A DNA stretch of 32,000 nucleotides from Haloferax volcanii DS2 (GCF_000025685.1 NC_013964.1:390001-422000); one strand, 5' to 3'; positions 7,954 through 24,981 are shown, counted from the first letter of the stretch. The notes: generated from the letters alone by a model not told the origin. A program made the numbers and translations.

Positions 7954-9090
7954 TCAGTTGTCGGCGCGGTACCGCTCGACCGCGTCTTCGTCGATTTCGA
8001 CGCCCAGTCCGGGGGCCTGTGGCACGTCCACTTCGCCGCCGGTCGGGTCGAACGGCGACTTGAGAATCTCGTCGCGGAGCGGGTTCTCGCTCCGGTCGAA
8101 CTCGACCAGCATCGGGTCCGGGACGTGCCGCGTGTGCGGGTAGTCCGAGACCGAGGCCGCGAACTGGACCGCCGCGGCGAGGCCGACAGCGCTGTTCCAG
8201 ACGTGCGGCCGGACCGCCACGTTCTCCGTGCTGGCGAGGTCGGCGATGCGACTCGCCTCCGAGAGCCCGCCGCACCGACCGAGATTGGGCTGGGCCACGT
8301 CGACCGTCCGGTCGTCCACGAGACGCTTGAACTCGAAGCGGCCGTAGTGCGCCTCGCCGGCCGCCAGCGGCACGTCGACGCCGCGTTTGACCTCGCGGTA
8401 GCCCGAGAGGTTCTCCGGCGGGACCGGTTCTTCCATCCACGTGATGTCGAACTCCTCGATGGCCTTCGCGGTTCGGATCGCCTGTCGCGGCCGGTAGTTC
8501 CCGTTGATGTCGACCATCAGTCGCGCGTCGTCGCCGAGGAGTTGGCGGGCGGTTCGAACCCGCTCCACGTCGGAGTCCGTGCCGGTGCCGATTTTTATCT
8601 TGGCCGCCGAGAAGCCCTCGTCGACGGCGTCTCGAATCGGCGCGGCGATGTCGCGGTCCGCCTCGGTGAAGTACATCGTCGAGGCGTAGGCCGTGAGCGT
8701 CTCGCGGGGCGTCCCGCCGAGGAGCCGGTGGACGGGCTTGCCGGTCGCCTTGCCGACGAGGTCCCAGAGAGCCACGTCGATGCCGCTGAGGGCGCTCTGG
8801 ACGAAGACGCTCCCGCCGAAGTGGTACGGGTCGGTGTACGACTCCTCGGCGAGCCGTCGCACGTCGAAGGGGTCCATGCCGACCACGTCGTCGCGGAAGA
8901 ACTCGTCGACGACGGGCGCGATAACGCTTCCCGGGGCGAACGCCTCGCCCCAGCCGACCTCGCCGGTGTCGGTGTCGACGCGGATGAGCGTCGTCGCCCT
9001 GTCGTGGCCGAACCCGCGCGCGTCGCCGAGACCCTGCCCGTCGGGCAGGCGGTGCGATATCGGGATGACTTCGATGTCGGTTACGTGCAT
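7954..9090 (-). CDS. Enolase-superfamily enzyme, mandelate racemase subgroup (probable sugar-acid dehydratase)
   Basis: 378 aa from ATG 9090 (MHVTDIEVIPISH...). It has the KxK base AAKIKIG, metal ligands DINGNY, WMEEPV and AAGEAH, and RPHVWNS. TATAAT lies at -30 from 9090. The Arg-rich N-terminal extension of track ORF 7954..9477 is non-coding. Confidence 0.85.
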   Translation of the reverse strand: MHVTDIEVIPISHRLPDGQGLGDARGFGHDRATTLIRVDTDTGEVGWGEAFAPGSVIAPVVDEFFRDDVVGMDPFDVRRLAEESYTDPYHFGGSVFVQSALSGIDVALWDLVGKATGKPVHRLLGGTPRETLTAYASTMYFTEADRDIAAPIRDAVDEGFSAAKIKIGTGTDSDVERVRTARQLLGDDARLMVDINGNYRPRQAIRTAKAIEEFDITWMEEPVPPENLSGYREVKRGVDVPLAAGEAHYGRFEFKRLVDDRTVDVAQPNLGRCGGLSEASRIADLASTENVAVRPHVWNSAVGLAAAVQFAASVSDYPHTRHVPDPMLVEFDRSENPLRDEILKSPFDPTGGEVDVPQAPGLGVEIDEDAVERYRADN

Positions 9091-9188
9091 GAAAAGTGTA
9101 CCACGGAGAGACGCATTATAGCTTGTGCAGACGGCGAACGCGGCGAGACAGACGGGACGAAGGCGGCGAGTCGCTTCGAACCGTCGAC

Positions 9189-17282: not shown

Positions 17283-18113
17283 ATGTCCCGATTCGTGGCG
17301 GCCGCGTGCCAGCTAGACTCCCGAGACGACAAGGCGGCGAACGTGGAGCGGGCGCTCGGCCTCCTCGACGAGGCCGCGGCCGACGGCGCTGATTTCGTGG
17401 CGTTCCCGGAGATGACGACCTTCATCGGCCCGGAAGAGCGGTTCGCAGAGGTCGCGGAGGCGCTGGATGGCCCGACGATACAACGGTTCTCGGAGAAGGC
17501 CCGCGAGCACGGCGTCTTCGTCCACACGGGCAGTTTCTTCGAGCGGATTCCGGACAGCGACCGAGTCTACAACACGTCGGCGCTCATCGGCCCGAGCGGC
17601 GAGGTGCTCGACACCTACCGGAAGGTCCACCTGTTCGACATCGAACTCGACGGCAGCGTCGAACACCGCGAGTCCGACTACGTCGCCCCCGGCGATAGGC
17701 CGGTGACGGTCGATACCGACCTCGCGACGTTCGGCCTCTCTATCTGCTACGACCTTCGGTTTCCGGGGCTCTACCGGGCGATGGCGCAGTCCGGCGCGAA
17801 CGTCCTACTCGTCCCGTCGGCGTTCACGATGCACACCGGAAAAGACCACTGGGAGCCGCTCCTTCGCGCCCGCGCCATCGAGAATCAGGCGTACGTCATC
17901 GCGCCCGGCCAAATCGGGGACAAGCCGTCGTGGGTCGAGACCTACGGCCGCACGCTCGTCGTCGACCCGTGGGGGAACGTGATTTCGAAGGCGCGGGACC
18001 GCGAGGAAGTCGTCACGGCGACCATCGACCTGTCGCATCTGGACGAGATTCGCCGCGACATGCAGACGCTCCAGCACGCGCGACCGGACGTGTACGAGCG
18101 GTCGGAGAAGTGA
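17283..18113 (+). CDS. Carbon-nitrogen hydrolase (nitrilase superfamily amidohydrolase)
   Basis: 276 aa with the Glu-Lys-Cys triad contexts FVAFPEM, YRKVHLFD and LSICYDLRFP. It is probably co-transcribed with the cupin gene (42-nt gap, no TATA). Confidence 0.85.
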   Translation: MSRFVAAACQLDSRDDKAANVERALGLLDEAAADGADFVAFPEMTTFIGPEERFAEVAEALDGPTIQRFSEKAREHGVFVHTGSFFERIPDSDRVYNTSALIGPSGEVLDTYRKVHLFDIELDGSVEHRESDYVAPGDRPVTVDTDLATFGLSICYDLRFPGLYRAMAQSGANVLLVPSAFTMHTGKDHWEPLLRARAIENQAYVIAPGQIGDKPSWVETYGRTLVVDPWGNVISKARDREEVVTATIDLSHLDEIRRDMQTLQHARPDVYERSEK

Positions 18114-18140: not shown

Positions 18141-20474
18141 TTAGCTCCCGCCGAGGACGCGCTTGAACAGCGTGAACGTGAGCAGGGTGAAGAACAGTCC
18201 GTTCAACATCCCCTGACTCGCCGCGAGCACCCGCGCCGCCGGCCCGAGCGGATTGATATCGCCGTAGCCGACCGTACTGAAGCTGATATAGCTGTAATAG
18301 ACGTTGTCGAAAAGCACTTCCATCGTCGTTTTGTCGACGGCGGCGGGGTCGAAGACGCTCCCCGCCTGCGTCAGGAACGGCCCGCCGAGGGCGTAACACA
18401 GTCCGAACAGCGCCGGGAGGAGGAACGTGAACGCCGCGATTCGCGGGAGTCGGTTGCCGTAGCCACAGGTGACCTGCATGAGCGTGTTCAGCCCCACGCT
18501 GGCGACCTTCTTGCCGCGGGCCCACGTGTTCAGCGAGTACTCGTTGAGGATGATGTCGAAGTTCTTCTGGCGGTTGTAGTAGTAACGCTTGAACTCGAAC
18601 TCGCGGCTCGCGGGGGTGTCGCCGACCGCGTTGGCGCTGTCCTGCGCTTTGCGGTACGTTTCTTCGATGATATCGGGCGTTAGCTCGACGGCGAACTGGC
18701 CGGTCGCGCCGTTGCCGACGAAGTCGTGGATGGTCCAGTCGTTGCGTTCGAGATAGCCGTGGTGGTCGCTGAAGTCGAAGCGGTCGAACTCGGTGAGGCA
18801 AAAGCGGAAGTGGTCCAAAAGCTGGTGTTCGTTGCCGCCGCCCTCCAGCGTCAGGTCGCCGATGGTCGCGCGGGTGAGGTCGTACGGCGTCGGCTCGCCG
18901 GAGCCCTGCGAAATCGTGCCGCCGTCGAGCGTCGCGTCGGTGAAGTCGAGGTAGGTGTCGCGGTCGCCGACGAGCACGCGGAAGCGCGCCGTCTCGAAGT
19001 CCGACTGCCGGAAGTCCGCCCGGTCGTGGAACGTCGTCTCCCAGAACGACGCGCTCGTGAAGTTCGCGGCCTCGAACTCCGCGCCGGCCTCGAAGGTCGC
19101 CCCGTTGAACGAGGCGTTGGCTTCGAGATGTTGCAGTTCGCCCTGGAAGAACGCCCCGCGGAAGGACGCGAGGCCGCGGAACGTGGCGGCGTTGAATCTC
19201 ACGTCCTCTTCGAATCGGGCCTCACCGAACCGGGCGTTCGATTGGAACTCGACCGCCTCGAACGAGGCATCGGAGCCGAACGTCGCTTCCTCGGCGACGA
19301 CGGCGTCGTGGAACTCGCTGTCGTCGAAGTTCGCTTGCCCGCCGAACGACGCCAAAGAGAGGTCGAACGCGCCGTCGACGCGGAGGCGATAGCAGTCGGT
19401 GCGGGCGGTGAACGTCGCGCGGTCGAAGCTGACCGCGCCCTTGAACACGGCGTCTTTGAAGTCCGAATAGCGGAATCGCGCGAGTTTGTAGTCGGCTTCG
19501 CCCTCGAACGTCGCGCCCTCGAACGTCACGTCGTCGTGGGTCGTCCGGCTGCCGCCGTTGAACTCGACGCCGCGGAACTCGGCCAACTGCATGAATCGGG
19601 CGTTTGCGAAGCTCGCGTCGTCGTCGAACCGCGCCTCGTCGAAGTCGGCCATCTCGTTGAAGCGGACGCCGTCGAACCGCGCGTCGCCCTCGAACTCGAC
19701 GTGTTCGAAGTCCGAGCCGGCGGTGAACCGCGCGCCGTCGAACGTCACGTAGTCGAAGAGGGCCTGTCTGAAGCTCGCGTCGTCGCGGAACGTCGCGTCC
19801 GCGAAGGTGATGTGGTCCTCCAGAACGTGACTACTCCCGCTGGTCTCGACGTTGCGGAAACGCGCCGTGCCGTGGAACGTGGCGTCCGCGAAGCTCGTGT
19901 CGCCCTGAAACACCGTCTCGTCGCACCGGACCTCGCCGCGGAAGGTCGCCCCCGAGAAGCGAACGTCCTGTTCGAACGTCGCCTCGTCGGCCGTCACCGC
20001 GCCGGTCACGGTGACTTCCCGGGCGTCCACGTCGCCGGTGACGACCGCCTCATCGAGTTTGAGGCGGTCGACCGTCGCCTCGCGGAGAATCAACCCTTGG
20101 TCGAGGCGGCCGTGGGTGAGGTCCAAGCCCTCGATATCGGCGTGCTGGAAGTTGAGGACGTGGTTCGTCGCGCCGTTGATGTCCTGATAGGTGAGCGAGA
20201 GATGCGGGAGGTCCGCGCCGACGTACTCGTTGACGCGGGTGTCGGGCGACTGGAGGTTCGCCCGGAGCTCGTCGACGATGTCGTCGCCGGTCACGTCGAG
20301 CGATGCGCGCTCGTCGCGGCTCATGTGGAACACGCAGAACTCGCTTTCGGGGTGGGCTTCGTGCGGACACTCCCACGTCGTCTGGAGGTGGGCGTCGGTC
20401 TGGACCGACGGGTCGAACGTGTACCGGCACGACGAGGAGGACATCAACGCCGGCGTGGACTCATTTCTCGACAT
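18141..20474 (-). CDS. Pentapeptide-repeat (beta-helix) protein fused to a 2-TM potassium-channel pore domain
   Basis: 777 aa. About 420 residues of A/S-x-F-x-x type repeats span residues ~100-520, e.g. ADATFHGTARF, FDGARFTAGSDFEHVEFEGDARFDGVRFNEMADFDEARFDDDASFANARF. The C-terminus runs TM1 IAAFTFLLPALFGLCYALGG, then pore helix plus filter YYSYISFSTVGYGDINPLG (TVGYG encoded at 18261-18275), then TM2 VLAASQGMLNGLFFTLLTFTLF. The N-terminus has a Cys/His cluster: CRYT...WECPHEAHPESEFCVFH. Confidence 0.85.
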   Translation of the reverse strand: MSRNESTPALMSSSSCRYTFDPSVQTDAHLQTTWECPHEAHPESEFCVFHMSRDERASLDVTGDDIVDELRANLQSPDTRVNEYVGADLPHLSLTYQDINGATNHVLNFQHADIEGLDLTHGRLDQGLILREATVDRLKLDEAVVTGDVDAREVTVTGAVTADEATFEQDVRFSGATFRGEVRCDETVFQGDTSFADATFHGTARFRNVETSGSSHVLEDHITFADATFRDDASFRQALFDYVTFDGARFTAGSDFEHVEFEGDARFDGVRFNEMADFDEARFDDDASFANARFMQLAEFRGVEFNGGSRTTHDDVTFEGATFEGEADYKLARFRYSDFKDAVFKGAVSFDRATFTARTDCYRLRVDGAFDLSLASFGGQANFDDSEFHDAVVAEEATFGSDASFEAVEFQSNARFGEARFEEDVRFNAATFRGLASFRGAFFQGELQHLEANASFNGATFEAGAEFEAANFTSASFWETTFHDRADFRQSDFETARFRVLVGDRDTYLDFTDATLDGGTISQGSGEPTPYDLTRATIGDLTLEGGGNEHQLLDHFRFCLTEFDRFDFSDHHGYLERNDWTIHDFVGNGATGQFAVELTPDIIEETYRKAQDSANAVGDTPASREFEFKRYYYNRQKNFDIILNEYSLNTWARGKKVASVGLNTLMQVTCGYGNRLPRIAAFTFLLPALFGLCYALGGPFLTQAGSVFDPAAVDKTTMEVLFDNVYYSYISFSTVGYGDINPLGPAARVLAASQGMLNGLFFTLLTFTLFKRVLGGS

Positions 20475-20553
20475 GGCTGGGGAGGGGCGGACGGCTGCGG
20501 TGGGCGCGCTGAGGACGGCGGGCGTGACGGATGCCGCGAGTCCGGCGGCCGAA

Positions 20554-20576
20554 CCGAGTGCGGCGAGCGCACTCGG
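20554..20576 (-). other. 9-bp-stem hairpin in the spacer upstream of the channel gene
   Basis: CCGAGTGCG-GCGAG-CGCACTCGG is a perfect inverted repeat. It lies between an ATATATAT TATA-like element (20637-20644) and the ATG at 20474. Confidence 0.6.
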
Positions 20577-20663
20577 GCGTCGGGGCGACGGTCGAACGCG
20601 CGGACAGTCGTATGTGCAACATTGTCTGGTGTTTTGATATATATCTTCGGACCGCCGTCGGCG

Positions 20664-21635
20664 TCAGTCGAATATCTCGCGGCGCTCGGACGCCGAGAGT
20701 TCGGCGTGAATCGCGTTGGGCGAGCAGTGTTCGCACTCGCGGGCGGGATTAGTGCTCTGCTCGAAGGTCCAAAGCGGCCACCCGAAGAGGAAAAACGCCT
20801 CCATCTGGTGGCGTTCGATGATGGCCTCGGCGGGCTTGCCGCAGTTCGGACACCACTCGTCGCCGTCGGCCGGCTCTTGGAACGTCACCTTCCGGCGGCC
20901 GAATCCGGCGTTCGAGTACGCCTCGCTTCGGGACATCTCGACGAGGTCCTCGGCTGGATACGGGTCGGCGTCGACCGCGTTGTCGAAGCCGGTGTCGGTC
21001 TCGACGCTCGACGCGAGATACGGCCCGACGCTGACGGTGTTGTCGTAGCCGACGAAGTGAACCGAAACGGCCGCGCCCCGACCCTCGACGCGCACCTCGT
21101 GGCCGTGGCCGACGAGGTAGAACTCCACGTCGGCGGTGACTTTCGTGAGGTCGATGTCGTGGGCCATTCCGACCGCGTAGACGCCCGTGTCCGGGTCGGT
21201 CGCGCTCCCCGACTGCTTCCAGCCGAAGGTGGACACGTCGTAGTCGTCGGGGGCGGCCGCGGGCGTTGCCTCGCCAGCGTAGACGTTCTCCGCGCCGGGT
21301 GCCGAAACCGCGCCGTCGGCGGCGTCCGCGGCGATGAACACGTCTTCGGCGTCGCCGAGAAGCACGTCGCCGGCGACCGACTGGACGTAGCCGTCTTCGA
21401 GACTGCCGCGGATTTCGGTCTCGACGGCCGCGTCGCCGCCCGTCCCATCGCCGACGGCCGCGTCGTCGGTCACCGGCGCGTGGGTGAAGACGTACTCGGC
21501 GTTCTGCACCGCGAGGTCGCCGGCGACGCTCGCGCCGCCGACGAACACGTCCGCGGGGTCGCGGAGTTCGACCGGGGGTCGTTCGGAGCCGTTGAGCGTC
21601 ACGTCGCCGTCGTAGGTGGAAGCGTTTCGGGTCAT
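20664..21635 (-). CDS. Acidic hypothetical protein with C-terminal split zinc ribbon
   Basis: 323 aa. The N-terminal half is made of short beta-strand-like repeats (DVFVGGASVAGDLAVQNAEYVF, VQSVAGDVLLGDAEDVFI, VEFYLVGHGHEVRVEGRGAAVSVHFVGYDNTVSV). The C-terminus has CPNCG, then 34 residues including FFLFGWPLWTF, then CEHC. It starts 16 nt after the upstream stop. Confidence 0.6.
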   Translation of the reverse strand: MTRNASTYDGDVTLNGSERPPVELRDPADVFVGGASVAGDLAVQNAEYVFTHAPVTDDAAVGDGTGGDAAVETEIRGSLEDGYVQSVAGDVLLGDAEDVFIAADAADGAVSAPGAENVYAGEATPAAAPDDYDVSTFGWKQSGSATDPDTGVYAVGMAHDIDLTKVTADVEFYLVGHGHEVRVEGRGAAVSVHFVGYDNTVSVGPYLASSVETDTGFDNAVDADPYPAEDLVEMSRSEAYSNAGFGRRKVTFQEPADGDEWCPNCGKPAEAIIERHQMEAFFLFGWPLWTFEQSTNPARECEHCSPNAIHAELSASERREIFD

Positions 21636-21651
21636 CGGTGGGTGTTGGGCG

Positions 21652-22176
21652 TCATCGCTGAGTTTTGGGCGTCATCGTCGTCTCCGTGTGCAGCGCGAGG
21701 TCGTACTCCGGGTAGGTGTGGTACGTCTCGTAGCCGCCGTCTGCGATGCGGATGGTGGTCCACGCCTCCGGGTCGAACCGGTAGGCGACCGTCGCGTCGT
21801 CCGGACCGGGGAAGGCGTCAAGCGGCCGGCCTTCGACGACCGTTTGGGCGTCGAGTCGGTCGCTCTCGAAGCTGAACTCGCGTTCCGCGCCGACGGAAAG
21901 CGGCGTCTCGTGGGTTCGCTCGTACGGCAGCGGCTTGCACGAACACAGCTCGTGGAAGTCGAGCGCCGGCAGGCCGACGTAGTGGGACTCGCCGATGACG
22001 GTGAGGACCGCCGGTTCGCCCGCGAGCGTCGCCGGGGAGACTGTCTTCACGTCCACGGTCGTCAGGTCTGGTGCGTCGGCGCTGTAACCGAAGTACAGTT
22101 CCGTCGGTGTCTCGGCCGGCGGCGACGGGTCGGCGGGGGAAGGCGATTCGGTCGTGGAAGGTGGGTGGGAGGGCAT
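21652..22176 (-). CDS. Hypothetical protein (174 aa), Pro/Ser-rich N-terminus
   Basis: It has acidic composition and starts 6 nt after the stop of the upstream aminopropyltransferase-like gene. Its C-terminal YETYHTYPEYDLALHTETT and central LTVIGESHYVGLP blocks remind me of bacterial DUF2617 proteins. That is from memory only and is unverified. Confidence 0.5.
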   Translation of the reverse strand: MPSHPPSTTESPSPADPSPPAETPTELYFGYSADAPDLTTVDVKTVSPATLAGEPAVLTVIGESHYVGLPALDFHELCSCKPLPYERTHETPLSVGAEREFSFESDRLDAQTVVEGRPLDAFPGPDDATVAYRFDPEAWTTIRIADGGYETYHTYPEYDLALHTETTMTPKTQR

Positions 22177-22182
22177 GGGAAA

Positions 22183-24009
22183 TCAGGTGTCGACGAGGAT
22201 GTCGTAGTTCGGGTGGAAGATGGAGTTCTCGCGGACGCCGCGGTAGTGCGGGACCGCGTGCCACTCGACTGCGCCGTAGTGTTCCTCGCGGGCGCGGACG
22301 TACCGGGTCGCGCCGTCGCCGGTGAGTCGGGGGCGGTCGCCGGGGGCGAGCACGTAGAACTGCTCGACGCGCTCGGTCTCGCCGTCGTCGTCGAGGTCCT
22401 CGCGCACCCAGTAGGAAAGCTCTCGGGTGAAGCCCGCGGCCCCGACGGTGTTGACGAACGCCTTGTGGTGTTCGGGGTAGGCGTCGGGCGAGTAGCCCCA
22501 CGTCACCGCGACGCCGTCCTCGGAGAGGTGGGTTCGGACGGAGCGGTAGAACTCCGTGGAGTAGAGGGTGAGCAGGTCGTCGTCGGTCGCGCCGGGGATG
22601 TCGAGCAACACGAGGTCGTACGTCTCGTTCGTCTTTTGGAGATAGCGGTAGCCGTCCGCGACCGTCGTGTTCAGCCGGTCGTACTCGTAGGCGTCGTCGT
22701 GCCAGCGGGCGAAAAACGGGTCCGTCTTCGCGTCGCGCATGAACTCGCCGTCGAGGTCGACGTGGTCGACGGTGACGCCGTACTCCCGCAGGTGGTCGAC
22801 GGCAATCCAGTCGCCGCCGCCGACGACGAGCACCTTGGTGTCGGGGCCGGGGTCGACCAGCGACATCGGCACGTCGACCAGCCCCTCGTGGTAGCTGTCG
22901 GCCCAACTCTCGCAGAGTTGGACGGCCGCGCCGAGGCGGAGGCACCGTTCTGTCCGCCCGTCGAAGTGCGGGTTCGGGCCGGTGCCGGTCCAGGTTCGGT
23001 CGTACCGGATGACGTGCTGGTAGGCGGTCGTCTCCTGTGAGGTGACCGTCGCGCGTATCGCGCCCGGCGGGTACTCGTTTTCTATCTGCTGTTCGAGGTA
23101 GAGCTGCGACAGGCGCTCGTCGGCGGCGTCGTGCTTGGCGACGACGCCCGCGTAGGTCGCCGTCAAGAGGAGGCAGACGACGAGGAGCGTCTTCGAGACG
23201 CGGGCGGCCGAAAGCGAGCGGTCGGAGCCGTCCGTTCTGGCGCTGGCGGCCGCGTTCCCGCCGGTGCCGGCGCTTGCGGACGCCTCGTCGCCGCCGAGGG
23301 GCCACCACGACCACGCGCCGAAGTGGGCGACGAAGACGAGCGCGGCGACCCCGTTGAGGAGCGCCAGCACGAATATCGTCGGGATGAGGCCGATGCCCGG
23401 GTAGAGGACGCGGGCGTAGACGACGGCACCGGCGAGGCCGCCGACGTAGTCCATCGCGAGGACGACCGAAAGCCCGCTTCTGCGGCCCTCGGTCCGCTCG
23501 ACGGTCCAGAGGGTGCCGACGGCGGCCACGACGAAATCGTGGATTCGCGTGCCGGCGGTCCGGAGCCACGAGGGCGTCGCCGACCCGTCGCCGTCGAGGT
23601 CGTCGAACATGCGGGTCAAAAGCGGGAGTTCGAACCCGGAGAGGAACCCGACGACGACGACCGGCAGGCGGGCGACGGTCCAGACGAGTTCCGCGGGCAC
23701 CGCCTGCGGGATGCGGACGCTGTTGAGGCCGACGATGAGCAGGAAGCCCGCGGGTGCGGCCGCGGCCAAGAGCACCTCGGTGCGGAAGAAGTTCCCGCCG
23801 AGGGTCTCGCCGTCGAGGTCGTCCGAAAGCGCCGCGCCGATGCCGAGGCTGAAGAAGTACAGCCCGACCGTGATGACGTACTGGGTGACCGTTCCGCCGT
23901 ACATCACCGTCAGCAGCTCCGAGTAGACGAACTCGTAGGCGAAGCTACAAAAGGACACCACGAAGGTGAGCGTCAGGAGCGTCGCCGTGTCGGTTCGTGT
24001 GTTAGACAT
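22183..24009 (-). CDS. Membrane-anchored polyamine aminopropyltransferase (spermidine/spermine synthase)-like protein
   Basis: 608 aa. The N-terminal ~250 aa carry about 7 TM helices, followed by an Ala/Gly/Ser linker. The C-terminal Rossmann domain has VLVVGGGDWIAVDHL, VDHVDLDGEF, DLVLLDIPGATDDD and LYSTEFY, which are the SpeE-type blocks. There is no TATA upstream, so it is likely co-transcribed with the lipoprotein gene. Confidence 0.8.
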   Translation of the reverse strand: MSNTRTDTATLLTLTFVVSFCSFAYEFVYSELLTVMYGGTVTQYVITVGLYFFSLGIGAALSDDLDGETLGGNFFRTEVLLAAAAPAGFLLIVGLNSVRIPQAVPAELVWTVARLPVVVVGFLSGFELPLLTRMFDDLDGDGSATPSWLRTAGTRIHDFVVAAVGTLWTVERTEGRRSGLSVVLAMDYVGGLAGAVVYARVLYPGIGLIPTIFVLALLNGVAALVFVAHFGAWSWWPLGGDEASASAGTGGNAAASARTDGSDRSLSAARVSKTLLVVCLLLTATYAGVVAKHDAADERLSQLYLEQQIENEYPPGAIRATVTSQETTAYQHVIRYDRTWTGTGPNPHFDGRTERCLRLGAAVQLCESWADSYHEGLVDVPMSLVDPGPDTKVLVVGGGDWIAVDHLREYGVTVDHVDLDGEFMRDAKTDPFFARWHDDAYEYDRLNTTVADGYRYLQKTNETYDLVLLDIPGATDDDLLTLYSTEFYRSVRTHLSEDGVAVTWGYSPDAYPEHHKAFVNTVGAAGFTRELSYWVREDLDDDGETERVEQFYVLAPGDRPRLTGDGATRYVRAREEHYGAVEWHAVPHYRGVRENSIFHPNYDILVDT

Positions 24010-24078
24010 CGATGGAAGGCGAGTCGGTCGCGGCGGACGCGACGATGTCGCCGCGGCGGTCGTCGTGGTTCGTCCCGC

Positions 24079-24804
24079 TCAGATGCGCGGGGAGACTTTC
24101 CACTCTTCCTCGATGGAGTACCCCGCGTCACCGATGCCGTCGGTGACTTCGAGGTCGTAACACTCCCAGCGGAAGTCGTGGTTCACGTCGTCGCCGACGA
24201 TGTGCGCGCCGACGCGGTACCAGCCGTCGCGACCCAGTTGGCTCCCGTCGGACATGTCGTACTCGGCGGTGCCGCTCGGGTCCTGTATCTCGCGGTCCCA
24301 CGGCACCGGGCCGGCGTCGGGCGCGTCGTCGCGCATCGCCGCGGTCGACCCGAGGTAGGCGATGCCGAGCGCGGCGACGCCGACCGGGAACCGGCTCACT
24401 TTGCCGGCGTTGTTCTCGTACCAGTCGTCGGCGTAGTCGCCGCCGTGGTACCACGCGTGGCCGTGGACGGTCCGCGGAGCGGAGGCGTAGCCGCCTGTGC
24501 CGCGACCGGTCGCACCGCGGCCGCCACCGCCGCCGCCCTTTCCTTTCGCGCTCGCGACCCCGACGGGACTGAGCGCGGCCAGCGACTGCGGGTCGAACCC
24601 TGACAGCGACGACTGGTCGGCGGCTTCGTAGCGGGACATCACCCACGTCTGGTCGGCGAGGTCGACGACGAGCGAGCCGTCGGACACCTCGAAGTCGGAG
24701 ACGACGCTGGACTTTCGCGGGGGAGGGGAGTTCGAGCCGAGACAGCCGGCGAGCCCGCCGGCGGCCCCGAGACCGGTCAGTTGGAGGAACGTGCGGCGCT
24801 TCAT
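24079..24804 (-). CDS. Tat-secreted lipoprotein, unknown function
   Basis: From ATG 24804 the product begins MKRRTFLQLTGLGAAGGLAGCLG, a twin-arginine motif followed by the lipobox LAGC. It has the Gly run GKGGGGGGRGATGRGTGG and an aromatic/acidic mature domain. TTTTCT lies at -29. The track start at TTG 24825 is unlikely. Confidence 0.7.
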   Translation of the reverse strand: MKRRTFLQLTGLGAAGGLAGCLGSNSPPPRKSSVVSDFEVSDGSLVVDLADQTWVMSRYEAADQSSLSGFDPQSLAALSPVGVASAKGKGGGGGGRGATGRGTGGYASAPRTVHGHAWYHGGDYADDWYENNAGKVSRFPVGVAALGIAYLGSTAAMRDDAPDAGPVPWDREIQDPSGTAEYDMSDGSQLGRDGWYRVGAHIVGDDVNHDFRWECYDLEVTDGIGDAGYSIEEEWKVSPRI

Positions 24805-24981
24805 GAGGACTCTCGTCTCTGTCAATCAGAAAACTAGGATAACAGTCTTGTGGTTCGATACGTTCGGCGTGAGAGAAAACCGCGCCGGCCGGTGCGTATC
24901 TCGGAACGGGGCCGCGGTGGGCCCGCGGTGGGCCCGCGACCGCGCCGACCGCCTCGTGTCGCGGCGAACGCACACGAGCGG

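Follow-up and report, generated by a model that had tools for sequence, protein, structure and literature searches.

The window analysed here is a 32,000-nucleotide stretch of DNA from Haloferax volcanii DS2 (GCF_000025685.1, NC_013964.1:390001-422000). It carries, on the minus strand, a gene cluster built around a membrane-fused homologue of spermidine synthase (SpeE), and comparison across Halobacteria revealed that the conserved unit is made of five genes, not of four. The products are a predicted lipoprotein (A), the SpeE homologue with its transmembrane (TM) domain (TM-SpeE; B), a DUF2617 protein (C), an acidic protein with a zinc ribbon (D) and a pentapeptide-repeat protein that ends in a K+ channel pore (K). 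The five genes very probably form a conserved functional module whose B-C core is homologous to bacterial TM-SpeE systems. Taking the mechanism and the gene content together, we judge it reasonably probable that the five genes are an accessory membrane module of Halobacteria, frequently located on megaplasmids, and that they represent an archaeal version of the membrane-fused SpeE systems known from bacteria. The specific mechanism, in which donor, acceptor and product are all predicted, is put forward tentatively.

Conservation of the module in Halobacteria

To delimit the unit, one genome per species was scanned with an alignment of the C family, and 8 kb on either side of C was taken as the neighbourhood. 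The survey returned 53 loci, all of them in Halobacteria. Within these neighbourhoods, A was found at 51 loci, B at 52, C at 53, D at 52 and K at 47. Genes A, B and C are contiguous and co-oriented at every locus (51-53 loci from different species), with A always directly upstream of B. Since this holds throughout, the clustering is far beyond chance. The position of D is variable (52 of the 53 loci); it follows C, follows K, or lies divergently upstream of A. K, likewise, occurs in several arrangements. All-against-all clustering of the proteins from the 53 loci gave no further real gene family common to more than one clade. The initial annotation had described a cluster of four genes with a K+ channel gene immediately downstream on the same strand. 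The cluster is syntenic across Halobacteria, and the channel gene does lie where it was described. It is, however, not a mere neighbour but the fifth conserved member of the module.

The junction between B and C is particularly tight. At 42 of 45 loci, the ATG of C lies between -4 and +6 nt from the stop codon of B, with a 4-nt overlap in 17 of them. Such spacing argues for coupled translation and for a stoichiometric partnership of B and C.

Around 20 haloarchaeal plasmid records (megaplasmids or secondary replicons) carry the module, and they come from Haloferax, Haloarcula, Halorussus, Natribaculum and Salinibaculum. When C was compared with plasmids by tblastn, only haloarchaeal matches were obtained. 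Given this plasmid location and its occurrence in no more than 53 species representatives, the module looks like an accessory trait that may be mobile. A role in anti-phage defence was considered and rejected; the defence search gave a single generic Rossmann-fold match of B to 'mad2' (E 1e-7) and nothing for the other proteins.

Protein B, a membrane-fused SpeE with an altered acceptor site

The hydropathy profile of B has seven hydrophobic segments, and the Pfam Spermine_synth model (PF01564) matches residues 371-517 (E 7.4e-15; 55.4 bits against a gathering cut-off of 22.9). The description of B as about seven TM helices followed by a SpeE-like Rossmann domain was thus correct. The NCBIfam model PRK03612 also matched (E 9.4e-57), with 192.6 bits against an equivalog cut-off of 472 and so below that cut-off; B is a divergent relative of PRK03612, not an equivalog. 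In BLASTP, the similarity to bacterial TM-SpeE proteins is nearly full length and includes the TM domain. The alignments span residues 21-528 and 11-552 of two bacterial proteins, with E values of 9e-31 and 3e-33 and 24-27% identity. This substantiates the earlier proposal that B is a membrane-fused SpeE of the kind found in bacterial modules. The bacterial proteins matched here sit in DUF4178/DUF350/SpeD operons with an SPFH or a TelA-like gene.

The best match of B in the Protein Data Bank (PDB), and hence its best solved relative, is the triamine/agmatine SpeE of Thermus thermophilus (1UIR; E 3.5e-17), which is soluble and has no TM domain. In SpeE structures, the Asp or Glu of the GGG(D/E) loop binds the aminopropyl amine of decarboxylated S-adenosylmethionine (dcAdoMet). 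The first Asp of the D-x-x-D-P motif serves as the catalytic base, and the second helps to hold the diamine acceptor. Among the 52 haloarchaeal B sequences, Y373, H374, G397-G-G-D400, D418, D420, D452, D470 and P472 are invariant. The donor-binding and catalytic residues (the GGG(D/E) loop, the ribose acid, the adenine Asp and the catalytic Asp) are therefore kept, and the YH, GGG(D/E), D-x-D and catalytic Asp positions align with those of 1UIR. The second Asp of the acceptor motif is missing from all 52 sequences; they have G473-A474, where both bacterial TM-SpeE proteins and the Thermus enzyme have D-P. Taken together, B looks capable of donor binding and catalysis, with a changed acceptor site.

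Many polar or charged residues inside the TM helices are also invariant in the 52 sequences, for example Y25, E26, E31, R76, E78, E127 and D187. Their conservation suggests that the membrane domain of B contains a substrate site. In all 52 proteins, the stretch just before the SpeE core has two invariant cysteines (C356 and C366) and W369.

B is of the HVO_B0357 type, with a GGGD(W/Y) motif. It shares with this protein, which falls into the same orthologue group, the seven TM helices, a short C-terminal tail and putrescine-binding residues that are not conserved. Prunetti et al. 2016 (PMC5178350) found that H. volcanii has no spermidine and that a homologue of S-adenosylmethionine (AdoMet) decarboxylase occurs in no halophile; in HVO_B0357, they also noted a lack of conservation of the residues that bind putrescine, as seen here for the acceptor-site Asp. 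Gomez et al. 2018 (PMC6267482) placed HVO_B0357 in the GGGD(W/Y) class. The anatomy of the haloarchaeal B proteins fits both accounts. In these two papers the protein was treated alone, without the four partner genes or the coupling to DUF2617.

Protein C and its likeness to AdoMet decarboxylase

C matches the Pfam DUF2617 model (PF10936) with 24.7 bits, above the gathering cut-off of 22.3. The model matches 22 of 23 family members (best E 6.5e-9), and the PF10936 label is precomputed on all 75 database homologues of C, so the suggestion that the 174-residue protein is a DUF2617 protein was right. No signal peptide is present in C or in D. Over 125 sequences, the invariant residues of C are G62-x-S64-H65, E76, C80, F134 and the segment ETYHTYPE (residues 150-157). 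In the account of Ravi et al. 2024 (PMC11237479), DUF2617 is an enzyme with a beta-sandwich fold in which two His, an Asp and a Glu are conserved. Among the 125 C sequences, H65, H153, E76, E150 and E157 are invariant, and no invariant Asp was found. The first 26 residues of C form a Pro/Ser/Thr-rich low-complexity extension outside the DUF2617 match. The extension differs greatly in length and sequence from one species to another, and in H. mediterranei it is repeated.

For comparison with bacteria, we scanned metagenomes with a TM-SpeE alignment and obtained 80 loci with 4934 open reading frames (ORFs); TM-SpeE operons were also seen on plasmids of Alteromonas and Novosphingobium. A hidden Markov model (HMM) of the C family gave only two matches among the 4934 ORFs, and both are Pfam AdoMet_dc proteins, that is, SpeD, the pyruvoyl AdoMet decarboxylase (AdoMetDC). 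In the reverse direction, the top 20 matches of a SpeD HMM among the 4060 ORFs of the haloarchaeal loci were all C-family ORFs (best E 1.3e-3). The C profile searched against all PDB sequences found an AdoMetDC (2III) as its best match, at an E of 0.4, which is weak when taken alone. Aligning the C and SpeD profiles with hhalign gave an E of 1.2e-4, or 1.8e-5 for the C-terminal half alone, while reversed or unrelated control alignments lay at 0.1-0.8. The score of 32.4 compares with 11.6 +/- 2.4 (maximum 20.3) in 150 column shuffles and is 8.8 standard deviations above this null.

The aligned segment reads F134...A138-x-T140...(15 residues)...H153-T-Y-P-E157 in C and F...G-x-T...(15 residues)...H-T-W-P-E in SpeD. 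The motif H[TS][WYF]PE is present in 53 of 53 C proteins and 36 of 36 SpeD proteins, and nowhere else in about 9000 ORFs (about 1.5 million residues). The gene positions also correspond. In Alteromonas, SpeD lies directly downstream of TM-SpeE, which is the position of C in the haloarchaeal loci. C thus shares with the class 1 pyruvoyl AdoMetDC (SpeD/SpeH, PF02675, 2III) both a sequence signature and the place next to TM-SpeE. It differs in being beta-rich and in having an extra N-terminal half with its own invariant G-x-S-H and Cys. We consider homology of the C-terminal segment of C with SpeD to be plausible on these sequence comparisons. A second AdoMetDC-like unit in the N-terminal half (VIGESH/LLAESH and ELCSC/DIFxC) was tried as well and rejected, as its E of 0.057 is within the range of the shuffled and unrelated controls.

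Proposed mechanism

The catalytic domain of B would face the cytoplasm and transfer an aminopropyl-type group onto a membrane-associated substrate other than putrescine, or otherwise alkylate it. The conserved, charge-bearing TM domain would hold or move this substrate. C would act as the stoichiometric partner of B; it may be derived from an AdoMetDC and may make the donor or hand it over, and this role is proposed because haloarchaea have no recognisable AdoMetDC. Lipoprotein A may receive or sense the product on the outer face of the membrane. The pentapeptide-gated K+ channel K, together with D, may couple the cationic chemistry to K+ flux or to the membrane potential. Such a scheme agrees with the proposal of Ravi et al. 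(PMC11237479) that the bacterial operons concern 'aminopropylation of other substrates'.

For C itself, a decarboxylase or donor-handling role is a hypothesis that we regard as possible but doubtful. In its full form, the hypothesis states that DUF2617 derives from AdoMet decarboxylase and takes the place of the missing SpeD in Halobacteria and perhaps also in actinobacteria like M. tuberculosis. C would then either make dcAdoMet through a relocated pyruvoyl-forming Ser (G-x-S64-H65, with C80) or serve as a prozyme-like donor-handling subunit. In both cases it would form a 1:1 complex with TM-SpeE, which would aminopropylate a non-polyamine substrate of the envelope. We offer this fuller version as a speculative model.

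Several observations weigh against this scheme. The similarity of C to SpeD spans only about 33-73 columns, with an hhalign probability of 54-78%. Pfam AdoMet_dc (PF02675) matched one of 23 C members, at an E of 0.27 and so not at the level of a Pfam match, and the bacterial Pfam DUF2617 model matched none of 28 SpeD proteins. The residue of C that aligns with the self-cleaving Ser of AdoMetDC is variable, and the canonical Glu-Ser cleavage site is absent from the aligned position, where residues 147-148 of C are D/A/T/G and G/T/A/R/S. The invariant G-x-S64-H65 is located around 85 residues upstream of the aligned cleavage site. S64-H65 and C80 are both in the N-terminal half, where the match to SpeD is not significant (E 0.057). 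A deletion of HVO_B0357 had no phenotype under the conditions tested (PMC5178350). The membrane topology of B is predicted from hydropathy and a cofactor argument alone, and the roles suggested for A, D and K come from their co-location.

In a competing explanation, C is unrelated to AdoMetDC and is some other beta-sandwich enzyme or a binding subunit. The donor of B could then be AdoMet itself, with a methyl or aminocarboxypropyl group transferred, or dcAdoMet whose source is unrecognised; alternatively, B would have a non-catalytic role as a sensor or in transport. The local extent and moderate probability of the C-SpeD match, together with the missing Ser, are what one would expect in this case. 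It is also in line with Pfam, which keeps DUF2617 and AdoMet_dc as separate families, and with Ravi et al. (PMC11237479), whose description of DUF2617 goes no further than a beta-sandwich enzyme in which His, Asp and Glu are conserved. However, the HMM matches, though weak, are reciprocal and family-specific, the hhalign score is far above the shuffle null, and H[TS][WYF]PE is exclusive to C and SpeD, whose genes hold equivalent positions. B also keeps the acid of the GGGD loop, which in the established view of SpeE marks users of dcAdoMet. An unrelated C is therefore an explanation that we consider possible, though somewhat unlikely.

Proteins A, D and K

A has a twin-arginine motif, RRTFLQ (residues 3-8), a lipobox, LAGC (residues 18-21), and the run GKGGGGGGRGATGRGTGG (residues 88-105). 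The initial annotation had described a lipoprotein of the twin-arginine translocation (Tat) pathway with a glycine run, and all three elements are present. R3, R4, G20 and C21 are invariant in the family, which also has a conserved PPPRKS motif. From these signals, A is predicted to be Tat-exported and lipid-anchored on the outside of the cell. The family carries the precomputed Pfam label PF26682, and its members were found in haloarchaea only. Our local copy of Pfam contained neither PF26682 nor PF26413 (DUF8108, the D family), and for this reason local scans gave no family for A. In the AlphaFold2 model of A (mean predicted local distance difference test score, pLDDT, 70.9), a beta-sandwich carries a loop of low confidence, residues 77-119.

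This Gly/Arg-rich loop is predicted to be disordered (pLDDT <50). It is also among the best-conserved parts of the family, with G82, A84, R101, A109 and P110 invariant or nearly so. Conserved residues in a loop predicted to be disordered likely constitute a functional motif, and the loop may be a binding segment or a modified one.

D is acidic (59 D+E against 17 K+R) and has two Cys pairs, C262-x2-C265 and C301-x2-C304, which are invariant throughout the family and make up a C4 zinc ribbon. These features agree with the earlier description of an acidic protein that ends in a split zinc ribbon. The protein is composed of N-terminal beta-helix-like repeats (DUF8108, PF26413), a DUF3060-like beta domain, found in 31 of 33 members (best E 6.8e-7), and the zinc ribbon with a helix. 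The AlphaFold2 model (mean pLDDT 90.5) is all-beta, with N-terminal repeat strands, a central beta domain and the zinc ribbon with its terminal helix. Foldseek found no significant fold match of this model in the PDB; the best, non-significant, matches are beta-helix or beta-roll proteins. In six Halorientalis loci (L023, L026, L027, L030, L031 and L041; around positions 8450-9170 of the locus, minus strand), D has about 200 residues and lies on the opposite strand. The short form is without the N-terminal repeats and keeps the DUF3060-like domain and the zinc ribbon, which suggests that the essential part of D is its C-terminal two-thirds.

K matches Pfam Pentapeptide_3 (5.2e-55) and Ion_trans_2 (5.8e-10). 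Its selectivity filter, TVGYGD, is at residues 734-739, at the extreme C-terminus and behind around 650 residues of pentapeptide repeats. T734, G736, Y737 and G738 are conserved in 48 sequences.

Comparison with bacterial TM-SpeE systems

Ravi et al. 2024 (PMC11237479) described bacterial operons in which membrane-fused SpeE occurs with DUF4178, DUF350, SpeD, and SPFH or PspA-CesT. One bacterial variant pairs TM-SpeE with DUF2617 and a DUF4247 partner, as in M. tuberculosis (CCP45394.1 and CCP45395.1). The pairing of TM-SpeE, DUF2617 and a secreted or lipoprotein partner, which the initial annotation had recognised, corresponds to this variant.

Our bacterial sample was of the other type. All loci from the metagenome scan were of the proteobacterial DUF4178/DUF350/SpeD type, with DUF4178 at 57 of the 80 loci, DUF350 at 46-66 and SpeD at 37-43. 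No K+ channel, DUF2617, A-like or D-like protein was found at these 80 loci. Bacterial TM-SpeE reportedly fails to complement an E. coli spermidine synthase mutant, although the linked AdoMetDC is reported to be active; this is in keeping with the mechanism proposed above and counts against B as an ordinary spermidine synthase. The haloarchaeal and bacterial operons share a TM-SpeE that is homologous over its full length and a conserved arrangement with small uncharacterised proteins. They differ in gene content, with DUF4178, DUF350, SpeD, SPFH and polyamine oxidase all absent from the haloarchaeal loci, and in the acceptor motif, which is D-P in the bacterial enzymes and G-A in haloarchaeal B. 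The actinobacterial variant, which we compared by its description in PMC11237479, has in common with the haloarchaeal module a DUF2617 protein and a secreted or lipoprotein partner alongside. In place of its DUF4178 and DUF350, the haloarchaeal module has D and K, and A has no detectable homology to DUF4247.

These differences bear on the reading first given to the locus, in which all four proteins were homologues of the DUF4247, TM-SpeE, DUF2617 and DUF4178 families and the cluster was an archaeal copy of a PspA-linked envelope-stress module. B and C are indeed true homologues, and A is a lipoprotein beside them, as DUF4247 is in the bacterial variant (PMC11237479); A might also be too divergent for sequence methods. 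However, none of 39 A-family members matched DUF4247 at E<=10 in the Pfam scan. A profile of the family searched against 1.84 billion representative proteins gave 74 matches, essentially all from the family itself and none of DUF4247 type; one marginal match (E 2e-5) is an unrelated Ig/PKD-repeat protein. The assignment of A to DUF4247 is thus rejected at the sequence level, and A is at most a positional analogue. The assignment of D to DUF4178 fails too, with no match in 33 members by Pfam and an hhalign probability of 0.1% (E 0.53) against 107 bacterial DUF4178 domains. As for the remaining partners, a DUF350 HMM gave nothing at E<2 in the 4060 ORFs of the 53 haloarchaeal loci, and no DUF4178 ORF was present there. 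PspA is not conserved in these loci, and the near-identical record from Haloferax lucentense shows no annotated PspA within about 9 kb. The reading in its entirety is improbable.

An ordinary spermidine operon, with B making spermidine from putrescine and the neighbours incidental, would suit the RefSeq label of B ('spermidine synthase') and a SpeE domain above the Pfam cut-off, but is scarcely credible given that H. volcanii has no spermidine and halophiles no AdoMetDC (PMC5178350), that all 52 sequences have another residue in place of the acceptor-site Asp, and that B has a conserved 7-TM fusion and four unrelated conserved partners.

The halophile TM-SpeE, the assignment of C to DUF2617 and the bacterial operons were already public. 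In the literature searched, we found no paper that describes the four conserved partners of HVO_B0357 or its coupling to DUF2617. With respect to that literature, the following are new: the haloarchaeal module of five genes, with the K+ channel as a member; the use of other partners where the bacterial operons have DUF4178, DUF350 and SpeD; the coupling of B to C; and the connection of DUF2617 with AdoMet decarboxylase. Thousands of bacteria, M. tuberculosis among them, carry a membrane-fused SpeE. The role of SpeE in haloarchaea is a sharper puzzle because neither spermidine nor AdoMet decarboxylase has been found there in published work (PMC5178350). The partner set is now defined in a genetically tractable archaeon, through the Haloferax orthologue HVO_B0357, a K+ channel is assigned to the module, and DUF2617 becomes a concrete, testable candidate for the missing donor-forming step. 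If this proposal were true, DUF2617 would have a function across bacteria and archaea, and polyamine-type chemistry at the membrane would be linked to K+ homeostasis.

Layout of the locus in the window

The features of the locus are listed in Table 1. The four ORFs of genes A to D were reproduced from the sequence at the positions first given for them, as were the gaps of 69 nt (A/B), 6 nt (B/C) and 16 nt (C/D). The TATA-like hexamer upstream of A was likewise read at its reported distance from the start codon, and inspection of the sequence showed that the DNA upstream of B, C and D is GC-rich. A TTG upstream of the ATG of A is an alternative start candidate. It is unlikely to be used, because the orthologues of A start with M-x-RR.

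Table 1. Features of the module and its surroundings, in nucleotide positions of the window.
Feature	Position	Strand	Description
Gene A	24079-24804	-	241 aa from ATG; predicted Tat-exported lipoprotein
Loop of A	24448-24576	-	residues 77-119
Gene B	22183-24009	-	608 aa; 7-TM domain and SpeE-like Rossmann domain
Gene C	21652-22176	-	174 aa; DUF2617, cytoplasmic
Extension of C	22099-22176	-	residues 1-26
Gene D	20664-21635	-	323 aa; acidic, cytoplasmic; DUF8108, DUF3060-like domain and C4 zinc ribbon
D-K spacer	20475-20663		189 nt
Gene K	18141-20474	-	777 aa; large cytoplasmic pentapeptide-repeat domain and C-terminal 2-TM K+ channel pore
TTTTCT	24828-24833	-	AT-rich TATA-like hexamer, -29 to -24 relative to the start codon of A
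TTG	24825		alternative start candidate of A
Carbon-nitrogen hydrolase gene	17283-18113	+	adjoins K on the opposite strand

In the spacer between D and K, an AT-rich stretch, ATATATAT, comes right after the stop codon of D. The spacer also contains a 9-bp GC-rich hairpin, CCGAGUGCG...CGCACUCGG, and its folding energy is ordinary (z -0.54). Rfam gave no family match anywhere in the window, the spacer included. On its other side, K is adjoined by a gene of the carbon-nitrogen hydrolase family, which includes some enzymes of polyamine synthesis. The gene is probably outside the module, because it is not among the families conserved across the 53 loci.

B of the window is 99.5% identical to a 'spermidine synthase' encoded on plasmid pSVX82-1 of H. 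lucentense; next to it, the annotation lists hypothetical proteins and a pentapeptide-repeat protein. In that record, the annotation of K starts 10 codons further in.

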